Source: Escherichia phage SF
Strand: one strand, 5' to 3'
Sequence record: MH359124
DNA: 64,000 nt
How positions within the stretch are numbered: the stretch's first letter is position 1; each line of letters opens with the position of its first letter. The notes beneath the pieces are model-generated. The model did not search any database. It was given only the letters and a program-made list of their open reading frames with translations, and was not told where the DNA came from. Positions 2,096 through 55,466 of this stretch are shown in pieces. A program made the position numbers and the translations under genes.

Positions 2096-3215
2096 TTTTA
2101 ACCTTAACTGGGTTAACAGGTTCTAACACCATTGAGTTGGTAAACATGTACAGATGAGTTTGTGAGTTGTTATTTGATAACTCATGAATAACTTCATCCA
2201 CGTAAAATTCGGATTTGAATTGGTTCTTTTGGTCAACAAATATAATTTTAGTGGCAGGCGTTATGTTAAAATTACCTGTAGTAGTGCATTTAGCATATCC
2301 GTCATATTGAGCCATTGTCTGAAGACGACTTGCTTCTTCAAATCCATTACGATAGGTCATTTCGGAATATCCACCCGATCTTGACACAAGAATAGCATTA
2401 TCACCATCGCCTGTAACAATAACCGGAATAGATGTATCTAAAAATGAATGAGCGAATACCGTGGCGTTTTTAATAGGGTCTCTTGTAAATTGGTTAGCTT
2501 TAGTCATCCAGGTGAAATCCCATACTAATGGATACTCAAGCTCTTGAATATACTGACCTACAGTATTTGGCTCGCCTACAATCATCTTAATGCCTTCCTG
2601 ACCAATAAGAGTATCATAGTCAATCATGTTTACGCCTAAAATATCTTGCCATACGAATACGAACTTATCACTCGCTGTAGCAAGTCCTAATTCTCTGACA
2701 TATGCCAAATAATCATCAAATGTGCTTGTCCAAGGGATATCAGGAACATAAGCATTAATAGTGTTTATTGGCGGAGTAATTAACGTACGGTCTTTATATA
2801 TGACACCTAACATTTCACGTATAGATTCTCCTGCGTCTGAGAAGAATGGTCGCCCAAATTTAAGGTTCTCTATAGAATGTATTGTTCCAAGCTCAATTGC
2901 AATAATATTGTCACCTTTTGAGTCCACAGACACAGAATAATGTCTACATCCATAAATTCGAGTTCTAACTTGGAGAGGTGTGTTTGAATTTGAAACAGAG
3001 ATTTGGACTATCTGTCTACCATCCATTTTAGTGTGGATGTTTTTAGTGTCATAAAATTGAAGAATCCCTTCATTTCTTCCATATAGCGAATCTCGCATGG
3101 TTAAAGTTGTTATTGTTGCTGCGAGTTCAATATATCTATTTTCTTGCCAAGCCGAATAATCTTGATATAATTTAACGCTTAAGTTAGGATATCCTGGACG
3201 TTGGAATACTGTCAT
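2043..3215 (-). CDS. 27: gp27 baseplate hub subunit
   Basis: 390-aa ORF, size and synteny match T4 gp27 (391 aa); 4-nt overlap with gp51. Confidence 0.85.
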
Positions 3216-3964
3216 TTTTTATGGTCCTTTTCTACTAATGTTAAAGCAATACCACGTTCAACAGGAATCATTTGCATAATAGAATCCAATGTGTATTGAC
3301 TCTTTACTAGTGAATGGTTTATCTGATAGAATGTAAAAATCTCATCAGGGTTAACTAACAATTTAAAAACCTCTAAGATATCAGTGTATGTTTTAACATG
3401 ACGTTCACAACAACCTAATCTAAGGGTCAAATTAATAGGGTTCATAGAAGCAATAACCTTCTCGAGCGAGTCAATGTCTATTGCTTCTATTACTTGGATT
3501 TGGTTCTCTTCAGTCAAATCATTCCATGGGTACCATTCATCATTATAATATATTTCTTTTATGTTTTCACTTATCATTAATGCTTTATTGTCATAAAACT
3601 TTTCAGGGAAAGAAAAACGTATTTTTATACCAGCAACATCAAGTTCAGGTTCGACTAGTTCTTTTTGATATATCTCAAATGGTGCAGTTTTTTCTTTAGA
3701 GCATTTAGGGCAAGTGAAAATAACAGGAACTTTTGTTTTGCCTATAGAGCCTGCAAAAACTTGCAGGAATATAAATGGTTGCCATGTTTTAGGGTACTCG
3801 CCAAAATAATCATCAATCAGATCGGCAATTATTTCTTTTTGTTCTTGCGGCGAACGATGTTCGATATCATTTCTAACTAGTAAAAAGTCTCTATAATCCG
3901 CCACAGTGAACGGCTTAAAACGATGAACACCATCCGGTAATTTACAACGAATTATATTAGCCAT
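3212..3964 (-). CDS. 51: gp51 baseplate hub assembly catalyst
   Basis: 250-aa ORF divergent from gp26 across a late-promoter region; synteny. Confidence 0.8.
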
Positions 3965-50495: not shown

Positions 50496-50517
50496 GGAGG
50501 ACTCCGGTCCTCCTTTT
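50496..50517 (+). terminator. rho-independent terminator after ORF 49894 (GGAGGAC-tccg-GTCCTCC plus TTTT)
   Basis: Perfect 7-bp stem and T-run. Confidence 0.65.
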
Positions 50518-50536
50518 GGATAATAAAGGAGTTAAC

Positions 50537-51133
50537 ATGCGAAACCAAAATAATGATATTGACTCGATGTTCGAAGAGTTCCGAAATAAGGTAAATCCAC
50601 CTACGTCTTTAGTTGATTCATTACGATATGTTGCAACTGGACGTAAATGGTACTGGTCGTCTTCTTATGAGACAACTGAATATGCAAATAACCGAAAATC
50701 TTTATTAGCCCCAGGTATTATGATTCATGATATCGGAGCTATTGCTAAACTAGTTGCAGACCATGATATTAGATTCACCGATTTCGTTGCTCCTACGTGG
50801 TCTGTTTGTTGTTTAAACACTGAATGGGAATATATCAGCGAACGCTCTGAAGATTATTATGGTTTTAGAGACAAGCTTTTAAGGTCTAACATGTTTTATA
50901 TTGATACAGAAGTTCTGGTCAATAATAAAAAATACTATTTCACTTTAATAGTCGATTCTGAAACTATGTATGAAGGCAAGCCTTTGCTTAAAAGAGTTGA
51001 TGCTTTAAGTGCTATTGATGCGCTTTATGAAACCATGGTTGTTAGTCCTAATTTCACTAACAATTTAATCCTTGAGCAATTTATTATGGAATGTAGAGAA
51101 TATGTCAAAGCCAACCCTATACATGCCAAGTAA
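50537..51133 (+). CDS. hypothetical protein (199 aa)
   Basis: ATG 50537 with RBS AAGGAG; C-terminal region contains the FIMECRE junction motif. Confidence 0.65.
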   Translation: MRNQNNDIDSMFEEFRNKVNPPTSLVDSLRYVATGRKWYWSSSYETTEYANNRKSLLAPGIMIHDIGAIAKLVADHDIRFTDFVAPTWSVCCLNTEWEYISERSEDYYGFRDKLLRSNMFYIDTEVLVNNKKYYFTLIVDSETMYEGKPLLKRVDALSAIDALYETMVVSPNFTNNLILEQFIMECREYVKANPIHAK

Positions 51134-51497
51134 GCCCTGGGCGTATGAATACAAGCGTAAATTAATCCCAAATGAAGTACTATTTGGCCCTATTTTAGCT
51201 TTAGCATTTTTAATCTTTATGATTATAGGAGCTGTTTTAGATTCTAGTGAAGTTATATCGTCTGATGCAGTGTTTTTACTTATTATAGTCGGGTCGTTTA
51301 TTGTACCATTTTTATTAATGCCTATTAACTGGGTAGGATATTGGCACCAAGGCCGTCATCACAGAGCCCGATTAAGAGAATGGAAAGTTCAGTGCGCAAA
51401 AGCCCAAGCTCAGTATGATGAAGCTGTTAAAAAGTACGAATATGAAGAAGCTATGGAATTCGTTAAGGAAATAAGATGCAAAAGCCTCAACTCTTAA
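51102..51497 (+). CDS. small membrane protein (2 TM), ECR-family paralog
   Basis: Start at 51102 (alternative 51123); TM segments ILALAFLIFMIIGAVL and VFLLIIVGSFIVPFLL; C-terminus EFVKEIRCK. Confidence 0.6.
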   Translation: MSKPTLYMPSKPWAYEYKRKLIPNEVLFGPILALAFLIFMIIGAVLDSSEVISSDAVFLLIIVGSFIVPFLLMPINWVGYWHQGRHHRARLREWKVQCAKAQAQYDEAVKKYEYEEAMEFVKEIRCKSLNS

Positions 51498-51835
51498 CCG
51501 TATGGCCTTCTCTTGGTGAGAACATTCTAATTTTTATTATGAGTATTGGCGTGGGATTTGCCTTTGGATTAGTTGGATTTCTTATTGACGGCGTTGTGTT
51601 AGGATTTATAGGGAACACTGGTGGATTCACAGACCAATGGCAGGACTTACGGTATACCCAAGCCTTTGCATCCATCGCATCATTTTGTACTGTAGTCTAT
51701 TTTTACTATGATTTTATAAACCATAACAAGAAAAATAAAAAGGTTTACGCTTCTCAAATGATTAGTTATAATGAACTCCTAGCTAGACGTGAAAATGAAA
51801 CAATAGAAAACTTTATTAAGGAATGTAGAAAATGA
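51476..51835 (+). CDS. small membrane protein (2 TM), ECR-family paralog
   Basis: TM segments; C-terminus ENFIKECRK; coupled to the downstream gene. Confidence 0.65.
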   Translation: MQKPQLLTVWPSLGENILIFIMSIGVGFAFGLVGFLIDGVVLGFIGNTGGFTDQWQDLRYTQAFASIASFCTVVYFYYDFINHNKKNKKVYASQMISYNELLARRENETIENFIKECRK

Positions 51836-52137
51836 GTAAGATTATTGAAATTAAAGTACCAGAGTTTAATGATGCCAAATCCGCTTCAGATGCAATTTAT
51901 AAACTTCTGAATCAAGCTGAACGTATCGAAGAAGAAGCAACAAAGATCGCAGACCAATATGCCGTATCATTTTCTGTAGGTGATTATGGTAGCGGTCGTA
52001 CTTATTATCCTAAGGGTGAAATCGTATCCCAGTGGATGAAAAATGAAATTGAAAATAATGGTGGCGATGTTAAGCGTGAAGGTAATGGTTACGTTATTAC
52101 TGAAGGTGCTTGGGTTTCGTCTTCTGCGTTGTGCTAA
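51832..52137 (+). CDS. small protein, member 1 of a tandem paralog triplet (C-terminus GAWVSSSALC)
   Basis: 101 aa; shares C-terminal G-W-[VI]-[SA]-S-S-x-x-C and upstream spacer GCTAAGGAA with the next two ORFs. Confidence 0.65.
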   Translation: MSKIIEIKVPEFNDAKSASDAIYKLLNQAERIEEEATKIADQYAVSFSVGDYGSGRTYYPKGEIVSQWMKNEIENNGGDVKREGNGYVITEGAWVSSSALC

Positions 52138-52146
52138 GGAACCACT

Positions 52147-52419
52147 ATGTCTAAAGAACAAACCGAACTGGCTGAAGCCGTAGCAAAAATCTATGCAGCT
52201 ATTGAGGCTGCCAAAGAAATTGCTGATAAACAAAACACAACATTCGACTTGTATCCAGCTTATGGTATGGGTGGAACATATCATTCACCCGGACAGCTTA
52301 AAGCCGATCTTGAACGTTGTACAAAAAACGGCTATGCTGAATGGGCTGACGTTTACCAATACGACTACAACCTGAGCCTCGAAACTGGTGGTTGGATCGC
52401 ATCTTCTCACACTTGCTAA
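52147..52419 (+). CDS. small protein, member 2 of the tandem paralog triplet (C-terminus GGWIASSHTC)
   Basis: 90 aa; conserved C-terminus and RBS context. Confidence 0.65.
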   Translation: MSKEQTELAEAVAKIYAAIEAAKEIADKQNTTFDLYPAYGMGGTYHSPGQLKADLERCTKNGYAEWADVYQYDYNLSLETGGWIASSHTC

Positions 52420-52428
52420 GGAAACCAT

Positions 52429-52626
52429 ATGTCTCGTGAATTAGATTGTGCTGTACGTACTGCAGTAGCTGCCCTGGAAAACCTGTTCCAAATTGCAACA
52501 GAAGAACGCGAAGAAGTTACATTATGGATTGAAGATAACGCAGGTCTGAATCTCCAGGACGCGATCTCATTATCCCACAATAGTATCACTGTTCAAGGCT
52601 GGGTATCGTCTAGTTATTCTTGCTAA
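52429..52626 (+). CDS. small protein, member 3 of the tandem paralog triplet (C-terminus QGWVSSSYSC)
   Basis: 65 aa; conserved C-terminus and RBS context. Confidence 0.65.
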   Translation: MSRELDCAVRTAVAALENLFQIATEEREEVTLWIEDNAGLNLQDAISLSHNSITVQGWVSSSYSC

Positions 52627-52630
52627 AACA

Positions 52631-52670
52631 GTTTACAACAAGATAGGGCTATGTTATAGTAGTCCTATCA
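52631..52670 (+). promoter_or_regulatory. early promoter with stem-loop (PeSL)
   Basis: GTTTACAacaagaTAGGGCTAtgtTATAGTAGTCCTAtc. Confidence 0.65.
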
Positions 52671-52688
52671 AATTAAATGGAGTCCACA

Positions 52689-52928
52689 ATGATTTATTAC
52701 GAAAGTATTGGAACCGAAGTGGTTGCTAAAACCATTACTCGTGAAAAGTTTGCAAAGATATTCGATATGCGTTATAAAAAATCTGAACACAAAGGCATTC
52801 GATTCGAAGATGCGCACTGTACAATTTGCCCTTATAATGAAGACATAAATGGTACAATCGTTCCATTGGTAGAGGCTTCACATGATGACCTCTGGGATGA
52901 ATATAATATCGCATGTCGCGAAATTTAA
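52689..52928 (+). CDS. hypothetical protein
   Basis: ATG 52689 with RBS GGAG; PeSL-type promoter upstream. Confidence 0.55.
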   Translation: MIYYESIGTEVVAKTITREKFAKIFDMRYKKSEHKGIRFEDAHCTICPYNEDINGTIVPLVEASHDDLWDEYNIACREI

Positions 52929-52953: not shown

Positions 52954-53910
52954 ATGATGTTAGTTATTGGTTCTCGTGCACTTCACTATCATGGACTTAT
53001 TGATTCTAATGCTATCAAAAATAGTGACTGGGACTTTATTGCAGACCAAGGTTCTTGGAATGCATTCAAAAATCAAATGATGGGTGTATATGTTCATCAA
53101 GATAACCCTGATGTCCAAGTTTTCAAATGCTTCCATAATGGACGCGAAACTCATTTTGAAGCATATATTGTTCCGGCAATCACTAATGTCCGTGAATTAG
53201 TCGGTGAACTCACTCCTGAAGATTTCACATCTTCTTACGACCTTTTAAAATACGCCAAGAAAAATTTGACCAAAGACCGTTTGAACGGGTTTTACTGGGC
53301 AACTCCTGAGATATGTCTTGCAATTAAGATGTCTCATCGTTTCAAGAAAAATAATCCATTCTTTTTAAAGACTATGAACCATATTCAGTATCTTCGTGGT
53401 AAAGGTGTTACACTGAACGACGAACTTACTGAAATTATGCTGAAACGCCAGAAAGAAACCTTGAACTATGCTCACCCAGTTCTTGACACTTCTAAAAGTG
53501 CGTTCTTTAAAGATGACATCTATACATATGACCATGATACTATTCATGAAGCCATTGCACTAACAGACCGCCCGGCTTATACATTTTACATGAAAGATGG
53601 TTCTGAAGTCATGACCTCACGCGAGAAGTTTGAATCATTACCAGAAATGGTAAAATTGGCTGGTGTATACGAAGAATCATGTGTACTAGCATTAGAACGT
53701 TCTCAGATTCCTAACGACTTTAAAATTAACCCTGAAGCCAGTTTTATGATGGCATTGGAAAAAGTCTGTACAAGCATCACCTCTGGTTGGTTCCGTGAGT
53801 ATGCCTGGGAAAACTATAGCAAAGTAGTAAGTATGTACCAAAGCTTAGGACATGATGATTACGTCAAACGTTTCAAACAAAATTTCCATATGGTAAAACC
53901 TTTCAAATAA
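52954..53910 (+). CDS. 318-aa protein with putative Pol-beta-type nucleotidyltransferase motif
   Basis: RBS GAGGAA; N-terminus MMLVIGSRALHYHGLIDSNAIKNSDWDFIA fits h-G-S...D-x-D, with a possible third carboxylate in HFEAYIV. Motif-level inference only. Confidence 0.7.
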   Translation: MMLVIGSRALHYHGLIDSNAIKNSDWDFIADQGSWNAFKNQMMGVYVHQDNPDVQVFKCFHNGRETHFEAYIVPAITNVRELVGELTPEDFTSSYDLLKYAKKNLTKDRLNGFYWATPEICLAIKMSHRFKKNNPFFLKTMNHIQYLRGKGVTLNDELTEIMLKRQKETLNYAHPVLDTSKSAFFKDDIYTYDHDTIHEAIALTDRPAYTFYMKDGSEVMTSREKFESLPEMVKLAGVYEESCVLALERSQIPNDFKINPEASFMMALEKVCTSITSGWFREYAWENYSKVVSMYQSLGHDDYVKRFKQNFHMVKPFK

Positions 53911-53922
53911 CTTCACAAAACT

Positions 53923-53962
53923 GTTTACATAATTATAGGGACTATGTTATAGTAGTCCTATT
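53923..53962 (+). promoter_or_regulatory. early promoter with stem-loop (PeSL)
   Basis: GTTTACAtaattaTAGGGACTAtgtTATAGTAGTCCTAtt. Confidence 0.65.
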
Positions 53963-53981: not shown

Positions 53982-54287
53982 ATGAAATTAACAGAAACCA
54001 ATCGAATCGGTCTTTTAACAATATTTGCATCACCTTTTTACGCAGCTCTTTCTGTTGCAGTATTACAAAAGGCCTACGATATGGATGGAGTTACTGGTTT
54101 TGTATTCTTATCGCCGTTTTTGCTATTCGTTGGAGCATTGTTATTATACGCCACGACTAGTTTCGACCATAATGTCTGGGTCAATTATAAATGTAAATTG
54201 TCTGAAGAAGAACACGCAGAAGCTCGTAAAAAAGCTATTGAATCTACCAATCTAGAAAATTTCATTAAAGAATGTCGAGGAAAATAA
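53982..54287 (+). CDS. small membrane protein (2 TM), ECR-family paralog
   Basis: RBS GAGGAG; TM segments; C-terminus ENFIKECRGK. Confidence 0.65.
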   Translation: MKLTETNRIGLLTIFASPFYAALSVAVLQKAYDMDGVTGFVFLSPFLLFVGALLLYATTSFDHNVWVNYKCKLSEEEHAEARKKAIESTNLENFIKECRGK

Positions 54288-54288
54288 T

Positions 54289-54975
54289 ATGAATAGTTCT
54301 AAAGTGTTTAATAGTCAAGCTCGTGCAGTAGGTGGTTTTGCTCATGCGATTAAAAACGAGCAGATTAAAAACGAGCCTATGTTCTTTAACTGCGATTTGA
54401 ATTTTGCTTTTGATAATGGCGGTCCAATTACTCGTAGCTTTATCCAAAATCTTCCTGACGATTGGAAAGACTCGGATGTAGTATTTGATTCACGAGTCCA
54501 CATGCTGATGCCTGGTTGGTATCCTGCTATTCCTGGATATCACCATGATGATGTTCCTCGCCCTGATATTCCAGTTGGTCAACACTTTATTACTGCAGGA
54601 CAACCTGATTATGACAATCCTCGCTATTTGTCTGAACATATTCTTGGTCTTGTTAACGCTGATGTGTGTCCTACTCATTTTGCAACAGGAGCTGCAGAGT
54701 TCAGTCAGATTCCTGATGGCGAACTTATCTATCGCCAGTGGCACAAAGAAGTCCTCGAAAAAATTGAAAAAGGCGAACTAGAGAAATGGGAAGCTCCAGA
54801 TCGTACTCTTCTTCAGTTTGATTGGCAAACATGGCACACTGGTTCTCGTGCAATTAGTAATGGATGGCGTTGGTTCGGACGTGTATCTCGTAATACAGGC
54901 CGAGTTAAAAAGATTACCAATGAAATTCGTGTCAATGCTCAAGTTTATCTGGAATTCCCTATGGAAGGCTGGTAA
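54289..54975 (+). CDS. 228-aa His/Asp/Trp-rich protein (possible metal-binding enzyme)
   Basis: RBS GAGGAA; motifs PGYHHDD and CPTHF; no confident family assignment. Confidence 0.65.
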   Translation: MNSSKVFNSQARAVGGFAHAIKNEQIKNEPMFFNCDLNFAFDNGGPITRSFIQNLPDDWKDSDVVFDSRVHMLMPGWYPAIPGYHHDDVPRPDIPVGQHFITAGQPDYDNPRYLSEHILGLVNADVCPTHFATGAAEFSQIPDGELIYRQWHKEVLEKIEKGELEKWEAPDRTLLQFDWQTWHTGSRAISNGWRWFGRVSRNTGRVKKITNEIRVNAQVYLEFPMEGW

Positions 54976-55466
54976 TGATACATAAAATTCACTGGACAAA
55001 CATGGACGATGGCGACGAAGGTATTTCATATTATTCTATAGATTGGACAGGATGTCCATCCTACTTAGTGAAACATATTTGCCAAGAATTTAAAATCGAC
55101 CAGCCAGCAGGTATTATCGTGAACAGATACATTAATGGATATCAACCTATCGATGAAGTAATACGAACAACTCAAGCTGAGCTTGAAAGGTTTTTCAATA
55201 AGTGTCAATGGATAACAGGATGGATTATATTTGTACCGTCTATATGGTTTTTCAGTACTAAGGTGAGTTCTTTCGGTTTTGTTGATATTATTGCTATCTT
55301 ATTAGCATCTAGTATCATAAGTGTTGTTGGTGGCATCATTGGCGGCGGTACCGCCGCCATCATTATTAATCTTATTAAAAGTAGTTTACAAGAACATAAA
55401 GACAAGATAAAGGCCAAGAATAATGAAGTTGAACGTTTTATTACCGAATGCAGGAATTTGAGATGA
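54975..55466 (+). CDS. membrane protein with N-terminal soluble domain and 2 TM, ECR-family paralog
   Basis: C-terminus ERFITECRNLR; TM segments WIIFVPSIWFF and IIAILLASSIISVVGGIIGG; ATGA coupling. Confidence 0.65.
   Translation: MIHKIHWTNMDDGDEGISYYSIDWTGCPSYLVKHICQEFKIDQPAGIIVNRYINGYQPIDEVIRTTQAELERFFNKCQWITGWIIFVPSIWFFSTKVSSFGFVDIIAILLASSIISVVGGIIGGGTAAIIINLIKSSLQEHKDKIKAKNNEVERFITECRNLR

Follow-up and report, generated by a model that had tools for sequence, protein, structure and literature searches.

A triplet of small Cys-tailed phage proteins forms the multi-copy component of a conserved two-component module with a putative nucleotidyltransferase

Pol-beta nucleotidyltransferases are recognized by the signature hG[G/S]x9-13DhD, of which AbiEii carries a variant: its spacer is extended (x = 15) and its motif II contains an Arg (PMC3985639). 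The minimal Pol-beta nucleotidyltransferase MntA (poly)adenylylates a Tyr of its partner HepT (PMC7641770). Furthermore, RlaP (PF10127) and CCA-adding Pol-beta nucleotidyltransferases of large phages have been proposed to act in RNA-end repair (PMC7824862). Here, we describe a locus from Escherichia phage SF (sequence record MH359124), located in a stretch of 64,000 nt that is referred to as the window and represents an RB69-like Mosigvirus. The locus comprises three consecutive genes for small proteins with a common C-terminal tail (P1, P2 and P3) and, downstream of these, the gene of a protein of 318 amino acids (aa) composed of DUF7277 (residues 2-101) and DUF7275 (residues 120-305). This protein corresponds to RB69ORF134c, is encoded on the plus strand at 52954..53910 and is called the enzyme in the following.

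Within a conserved two-component module that is specific to phages, the triplet supplies the small component in several copies. Its key context is the downstream enzyme gene, which was absent from an earlier sequence-only reading of this DNA. In a forward test, 33 viral loci with the motif YGMGGTY were fetched and all of their open reading frames (ORFs) were clustered, with 31 loci (L005-L035) forming the diverse set. The diverse loci share just two families, namely the tail-bearing proteins and a co-directional protein of about 300 aa immediately downstream. This second family, the enzyme, was found in that position in 30 of the 31 loci, the lone exception being a truncated contig. The reverse test used the enzyme as query and covered 80 loci, in which ORFs of 40-200 aa were searched with a relaxed tail pattern. 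It detected 213 tail ORFs in 73 of the 80 loci, all 213 of them upstream of the enzyme gene and on the same strand; none was found downstream of it or on the other strand, where sequence of comparable extent from these loci was covered. The number of tail ORFs per locus varied from none (7 loci) through one (12), two (25), three (12) and four (5) to five (19). In a pooled clustering of 119 loci, the tail family and the enzyme were the only universal families.

The two components are not equally independent. In the loci examined, no small gene was encountered without the enzyme and the enzyme occurred at times without small genes, an asymmetry that fits a small component dependent on the enzyme. 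The enzyme is present in 732 phage records across many host genera, including phages of Escherichia, Klebsiella, Acinetobacter, Aeromonas, Pseudomonas and Vibrio. In the genomes of 185,579 species it was found on 7 contigs only, all of them from metagenome-assembled genomes. The module is virus-specific and essentially absent from bacterial genomes. A general tRNA-related role was rejected, as among 55 diverse loci only 4 have tRNA genes in the neighbourhood of the module; RB69-like phages carry it a few kb from tRNA genes. No covariation was seen between the tail Cys and the conserved Cys272 of the enzyme; where the latter is replaced (C272A or C272S), the partners are still Cys-tailed.

Inspection of the window confirmed three consecutive plus-strand ORFs, as described in the sequence-only reading: P1 (101 aa, isoelectric point (pI) 4.7, 51832..52137), P2 (90 aa, pI 4.7, 52147..52419) and P3 (65 aa, pI 4.2, 52429..52626), with the tails GAWVSSSALC, GGWIASSHTC and QGWVSSSYSC, respectively. 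If tail positions are numbered back from the terminal Cys (= 0), all three end in Cys and share W at -7, [SA] at -5 and S at both -4 and -3. When the window was scanned in six frames for W.[SAT]S..C-stop, P1, P2 and P3 were the only ORFs returned, so the shared tail is not due to chance. The tail codons differ synonymously between the genes (TCG TCT TCT, GCA TCT TCT and TCG TCT AGT), which places the similarity at the protein level. Homology between P1 and P2 spans most of either protein (blastp E 2e-4 over 57 residues); the two have Y-G-x-G-x-T-Y and G-x-W-x-x-S-S-x-x-C in common, and both match phrog_899 (E 1.8e-22 and E 1.9e-18). P3 matches phrog_4882 (E 7.7e-37) and resembles P1 and P2 only across the last ~19 residues (hhalign probability 81%, E 1.2e-5; blastp E 5e-4). 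The loop YG(M/S)GxTY(Y/H) is present in P1 (GDYGSGRTYYP) and P2 (AYGMGGTYH), is missing from P3 and many other members ('type C'), and is a subfamily marker. By pairwise alignment and profile comparison, the triplet consists of paralogs, at least via the common C-terminal module. The similarity is thus not restricted to the gene junctions.

The inter-gene spacer, formerly regarded as a shared feature, is identical in layout at both plus-strand junctions (52135..52149 and 52417..52431), each consisting of TGC-TAA, 9 nt and the ATG of P2 or P3. Read directly from the window, the junction sequences are GGAACCACT and GGAAACCAT, and in each the stop codon forms part of the Shine-Dalgarno sequence TAAGGA. 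In close relatives the spacer varies: it reads GGAATCATT in RB69 and F27, so the 9 nt are not strictly kept. As it is not strictly conserved even there, the spacer looks like an ordinary ribosome-binding spacer and not like a duplication scar. The RB69 equivalents of the triplet are RB69ORF139c and 138c (P1), 137c (P2) and 136c (P3). In the RB69 reference, one additional T splits P1 into ORF139c/138c (L001 5833-6139), and the Ser at tail position -3 is replaced by Pro; this split gene is either a laboratory-strain pseudogene or a sequencing error. In phage vB_Eco_mar005P1, P2 is split. From these two cases it seems that single copies can be lost during propagation.

Several database names for these genes were set aside. 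The annotation 'sulfurtransferase' in phage F27 applies to e.4 and not to the triplet, and the labels 'tail completion', 'major capsid' and 'prohead (assembly) scaffold' on small genes or the enzyme are errors of annotation transfer, with mislabelled records including NC_018855.1 (HX01) and NC_055783.1/MK295203.1 (vB_EcoM_005) and the genes concerned including those at 52147-52419 and 52677-52928 of the window. The UniRef name 'Ig-like domain-containing protein' for P3 is another evident annotation error.

Judged from sequence comparison, the triplication is ancient and each copy is maintained by purifying selection, since every paralog has its own orthologs across genera and the ratio of nonsynonymous to synonymous polymorphism (pN/pS) is low. 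Orthologs in other T4-like genera show identities of 36-63% for P1, 51-56% for P2 and 37-63% for P3, and a P2 ortholog with 42% identity (E 5e-17) was found on a 371-kb jumbo-phage contig; identity between the paralogs is only 24-33%. The pN/pS values of P1, P2 and P3 range from 0 to 0.28 in four Mosigvirus genomes, based on small but consistent counts. Residues 1-21 of P3 are nearly invariant across genera, and unrelated phages repeatedly carry 2-5 divergent tail-bearing genes in an array. The sequence-only reading had proposed a local duplication with rapid divergence of the N-termini, as is typical of arms-race genes. The adjacency of the genes, their similar junctions and a mutual identity of only 25-30% are compatible with a recent triplication of that kind. 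It is nevertheless hardly credible, because the orthogroups are much older than the genus, selection is purifying, the N-terminus of P3 hardly varies, and phages unrelated to this one carry multi-paralog arrays as well.

The small proteins belong to a large family. An exhaustive profile search detected 171 clusters (50% identity) at E<=1e-3; almost all have a length of 75-120 aa and match the profile through the last residue. Among 150 sampled members, 137 end in Cys, and within these 137 the residues W at -7 (136), S at -4 (136), S at -3 (134) and S/A at -5 (127) are almost fixed. The terminal Cys, previously described as invariant, is thus clearly under strong constraint. G-G is frequent at -9 and -8, the commonest central motif is YGMGG, and members have a median net charge of -8. 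Some tails of Acinetobacter phages have Y or S in place of the terminal C. The T4-like phages of Acinetobacter, with phage Kimel as the example (L124 1328-1946), encode three small proteins with the degenerate tails SWSPSSESY, NWSNSES and WYNSSESC upstream of the enzyme gene (2492-3445 in Kimel). Relatives in Klebsiella phages have five tail genes, one of which contains two tail motifs. On a contig similar to Klebsiella phage Marfa, the protein encoded at L005 6257-6481 has the tail-like motifs DWLNSSC (internal) and RIWHPSSC (at the end), and a similar double motif was observed in L062. This arrangement suggests that the tail module has been duplicated internally in the two proteins.

Structure predictions depict small acidic alpha/beta proteins. 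The AlphaFold (AF2) model of P1 (predicted local distance difference test (pLDDT) score 91.3, predicted template modelling (pTM) score 0.78) has a helix at residues 15-43 and a five-stranded sheet, and the tail forms a strand (93-96) followed by a short helix (97-100). The model of P3 (AF2 pLDDT 82) shows a layout similar to P1 with a long N-terminal helix, short strands and a terminal helical turn. A Foldseek search of the PDB with the P1 model gave nothing below E 0.4, and a search of BFVD with the same model found uncharacterised family members only. At the sequence level, P1, P2 and P3 had no significant matches in Pfam, NCBIfam and PADLOC, the PHROGs entries being their sole family matches, and nothing below E 0.26 was obtained in a sequence-profile search of the PDB. 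An identity as ubiquitin-like or ThiS-MoaD carriers was discarded, as the proteins do not combine a beta-grasp fold with a C-terminal Gly-Gly. The same applies to acidic DNA mimics with anti-restriction function (Ocr, Arn, ArdA), as no structural or sequence similarity to a known mimic was detected.

From a short motif, we infer that the enzyme is a Pol-beta-type nucleotidyltransferase. Its N-terminus, VIGSRAL...SDWDFI, matches the Pol-beta nucleotidyltransferase signature at motif level only. In 20 diverse homologs, G6, S7, D25 and D27 are invariant, with a spacing of about 10-20 residues between GS and DxD, and in many homologs an Arg stands four residues ahead of the first Asp. In the C-terminal domain of these homologs K125, S127, H128, R129, K139, T140, R165 and H194 are invariant; D195, H198, E240, E241, E248, R249, K270 and R281 are likewise unchanged. 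Two GenBank records name homologs '(putative) nucleotidyltransferase'. An identity as RlaP (PF10127) or PolyA_pol was rejected, as the enzyme matches neither. The label 'DefenseFinder protein' on an Acinetobacter homolog contained no usable information.

The explanation that in our opinion accounts best for these data, with a probability of about 0.5, is that the small proteins are partners of the enzyme, probably its substrates, and that the tail serves as a common handle, with nucleotidylylation of the tail and early roles on host targets as the presumed outcome. P1-P3 are old, individually conserved members of a phage-specific family of small acidic alpha/beta proteins sharing a module that consists of a beta-strand, W-x-[SA]-S-S, a short helical turn and Cys-COOH. 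By the invariant tail, together with the YG(M/S)GxTYY loop of P1 and P2, the enzyme could recognise each paralog. Most probably it would then move a nucleotide, for example adenosine monophosphate (AMP), to a hydroxyl or thiol group of the tail, which could be Ser -4, Ser -3 or the terminal Cys. This proposed reaction is modelled on MntA modifying HepT. The divergent bodies of the paralogs would confer differing specificities and act on host targets early in infection. A more far-reaching version is conceivable, though doubtful: an unrecognised protein-maturation system present in many lineages of virulent phages, in which the enzyme would covalently modify the tails of one to five or more small acidic effectors by nucleotidylylation or by a Ser/Cys cross-link as in aminovinyl-cysteine (AviCys), and thereby activate takeover or anti-defence factors.

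Several observations weigh against a tail-modifying nucleotidyltransferase. The presumed partnership of the tail proteins and the enzyme is one of gene linkage only. None of the 20 homologs matches a nucleotidyltransferase family of Pfam at E<=10, the only hits being DUF7275 and DUF7277; no nucleotidyltransferase model of NCBIfam or PADLOC matches the enzyme, nor does any PDB sequence at E<=10. Around 7 of the 80 enzyme loci have no recognisable tail proteins, and the two actinophages examined, from Streptomyces and Gordonia, carry the enzyme without them. Thus, the enzyme does not strictly need the tail proteins. The Acinetobacter tails ending in Y or S argue against a chemistry that depends on Cys. 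In addition, the model of P1 packs the tail into the protein's own fold, and for this reason the conservation of W and S-S may be structural and not that of an acceptor site.

The main rival to this reading is a non-covalent role, in which the small proteins would be adaptors or regulators whose tail docks on the enzyme and whose body brings in a host target (protein or RNA) or gates the activity. We regard it as possible, in a tentative sense, as it draws on the same linkage and asymmetry data as substrate modification. Moreover, it would accommodate several divergent paralogs for one enzyme and bodies that are conserved within orthogroups, as in the first 21 residues of P3, and a Cys that is strictly the last residue would suit a free C-terminus recognised in a pocket. 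The invariant S, S and C, however, point to a reactive or ligand-binding site more readily than to a docking peptide, and in the model the tail is engaged in its own protein. Less probable, and in our judgement unlikely, is that the small proteins work on their own in early host takeover or anti-defence, for example as acidic mimics or by binding ligands or metals via YG loop, S-S cap and Cys, and are merely co-inherited and co-transcribed with the enzyme. Their small size and acidity (pI 4.2-4.7; family median net charge -8) would fit, as would their place in a non-core accessory insertion relative to T4 (e.3-e.2) behind early-promoter-like sites, and a Gly-rich loop with a Ser-capped helix could make an anion-binding site. 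Yet mere co-inheritance leaves the upstream, co-directional placement of 213 out of 213 tail ORFs unexplained in phages that share no other neighbours. It does not account for small genes never occurring without the enzyme either, and no structural similarity to known mimics or sponges was found.

Quite improbable is an arrangement resembling toxin-antitoxin systems, in which a toxic nucleotidyltransferase similar to AbiEii/MenT, acting for example on tRNA 3' ends, would be neutralised by the small proteins encoded upstream. One or more small genes 5' of a protein of ~300 aa with an N-terminal GS...DxD would agree with it, and the Arg that many homologs carry four residues ahead of the first Asp recalls motif II of AbiEii. 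The enzyme stands alone in several lineages, though, and five or more differing 'antitoxins' for one enzyme would be unusual. Besides, neither Pfam nor PADLOC gave a DUF1814/AbiE match, the small proteins show no relationship to AbiEi, virulent phages and not bacterial genomes harbour the module, and tRNA genes are not generally linked to it (4 of 55 loci). A C-terminus of the form S/T-x-x-Cys represents the spacing from which AviCys is formed in lanthipeptides and linaridins. It is therefore conceivable, at very low probability, that the small proteins are precursors similar to those of ribosomally synthesised and post-translationally modified peptides (RiPPs), with S(-3)-x-x-Cys-COOH as the ring-forming spacing and the tandem genes lying beside a tailoring enzyme. 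P1-P3 and about 134 of the 137 Cys-ending members have S at -3 and the terminal Cys, the W frequently follows a G-G reminiscent of a leader-cleavage site, and multi-copy arrays in tandem accompany a single enzyme. Against this stand the lack of a conserved decarboxylase of HFCD/LanD type, dehydratase, protease or exporter nearby (119 loci, and Pfam matches of the neighbours in the window), the confident prediction of the whole protein including its tail as a globular fold, a conserved 'core' with a variable 'leader', and the lytic lifestyle of the phages on Gram-negative hosts.

With respect to its genomic setting, the locus is 96-97.6% identical to genomes of RB69-like Mosigviruses, among them HX01, RB69 and F27, and the triplet lies within an accessory block flanked by e.3 and e.2, which is not known from T4. 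A promoter-like site, GTTTAC(G)-17 nt-TATAAT, was found by a consensus scan (10/12 matches) at 51744..51772 on the plus strand, within the end of e.3 and 5' of P1. The same scan revealed GTTTACA-17 nt-TATAGT with a TG extension at 52632..52660 (plus strand) in the gap between P3 and the next gene. These sites flanking the triplet bear a resemblance to the early-promoter consensus of T4, and we infer that the triplet would be expressed early. The enzyme gene starts 328 nt beyond P3 in the same direction. The intervening region harbors a small plus-strand ORF, RB69ORF135c (phrog_3723, 52677..52928), encoding 83 aa (79 aa if translation starts at the ATG at position 52689). As it lacks the tail motif and its relatives are confined to this lineage, being not among the gene families common to the diverse loci, this ORF probably does not belong to the core of the module. 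Between triplet and enzyme, no terminator-like site was found. Directly 3' of the enzyme gene, at 53924-53953, lies a third site of the early-promoter type (TTTACA-18 nt-TATAGT, again extended by TG), so that the accessory block appears to be split into three short units, each headed by a putative promoter.

Further genes in the surroundings deserve mention. Two genes 3' of the enzyme, a protein of 228 aa similar to RB69ORF132c (phrog_1843, 54289-54975) has no Pfam match; it is common to ~30 T4-like loci and absent from distant phages bearing the module. In T4-like phages of Acinetobacter, the module adjoins the gp41 helicase gene and is directly followed by a gene for a putative ADP-ribosyltransferase. 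Around the triplet, a second C-terminal motif, [EQ]-x-F-I-x-E-C-R, ends four genes at 1-11 residues from the stop: e.5 (50516-51133), e.3 (51476-51835), an RB69ORF133c-like gene (53982-54287) and e.2 (54975-55466), the endings being ENFIKECRK, ENFIKECRGK, EQFIMECREY... and ERFITECRNLR. In e.3 the codons AAG GAA TGT AGA double as the AAGGA ribosome-binding site of the next gene, and the conservation of this motif may thus be partly at the DNA level. Similar endings were observed in other phages (FIKYCRGK in L005, NFIRMCRK in L058).

Both parts of the module are named 'hypothetical' in the databases or carry obvious mis-transfers. P1 and P2 belong to phrog_899, P3 to phrog_4882 and the enzyme to DUF7277/DUF7275 according to hidden Markov model (HMM) searches, and these catalogue entries carry no function. 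Neither the tail shared across phrog_899 and phrog_4882 nor the link between small proteins and enzyme was found in the annotations or papers searched, and a literature search with ORF names, DUF numbers and descriptive terms returned no paper on the module. Our analysis turns three anonymous hypothetical genes into a testable unit of one enzyme and a variable number of tail proteins. The enzyme occurs in more than 700 sequenced phages, with tail genes accompanying it in most loci checked, and the near-invariant tail provides a precise experimental handle. The module is also present in easily handled E. coli phages, such as relatives of RB69 and Mosigviruses of the BASEL collection. Should the tails be modified by the enzyme, phages would possess a post-translational system of a new kind; if they are not, the module would still be a candidate accessory for host takeover or counter-defence that sets RB69-like phages apart from T4.

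The described systems resemble the module in different respects. RiPP gene clusters share with it small ORFs arranged in tandem, a terminal Cys that an invariant Ser precedes by three residues, and one enzyme encoded next to them; here, by contrast, a globular protein with a conserved tail and a variable body is found, and decarboxylase, dehydratase, protease and exporter are missing. RlaP and the CCA-adding enzymes are comparable as enzymes of Pol-beta type in the accessory genome of T4-like and jumbo phages (PMC7824862). The neighbours shared by the module do not include an RNA ligase, however, and RlaP has no tail-bearing small partners. AbiEii/MenT (DUF1814) is similar in its size of ~300 aa, the N-terminal hG[GS]-x(>13)-DhD, the frequent Arg four residues before the first Asp and the upstream small gene or genes (PMC3985639). 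K125...R129 and K139-T140-x-x-D (in most homologs) are spaced loosely like motifs III and IV of AbiEii, a likeness that is our own reading and non-statistical. In contrast to AbiEii/MenT, the enzyme lacks HMM similarity to that family (Pfam, PADLOC), can stand alone, has partners unrelated to AbiEi and is encoded by virulent phages instead of bacterial chromosomes. MntA-HepT has a two-gene operon with a nucleotidyltransferase of GS...DxD type and a small partner with invariant hydroxyl residues in common with the module. P1-P3 differ from HepT in having no HEPN family match and a predicted alpha/beta fold in place of the all-helical HEPN fold. The present enzyme has several partners and is ~3x larger with a unique DUF7275 C-terminal domain. 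Moreover, this module is phage-specific, and modification of its partners would be proposed by analogy to MntA-HepT. As a whole, the module extends the known theme of an enzyme plus a small partner.

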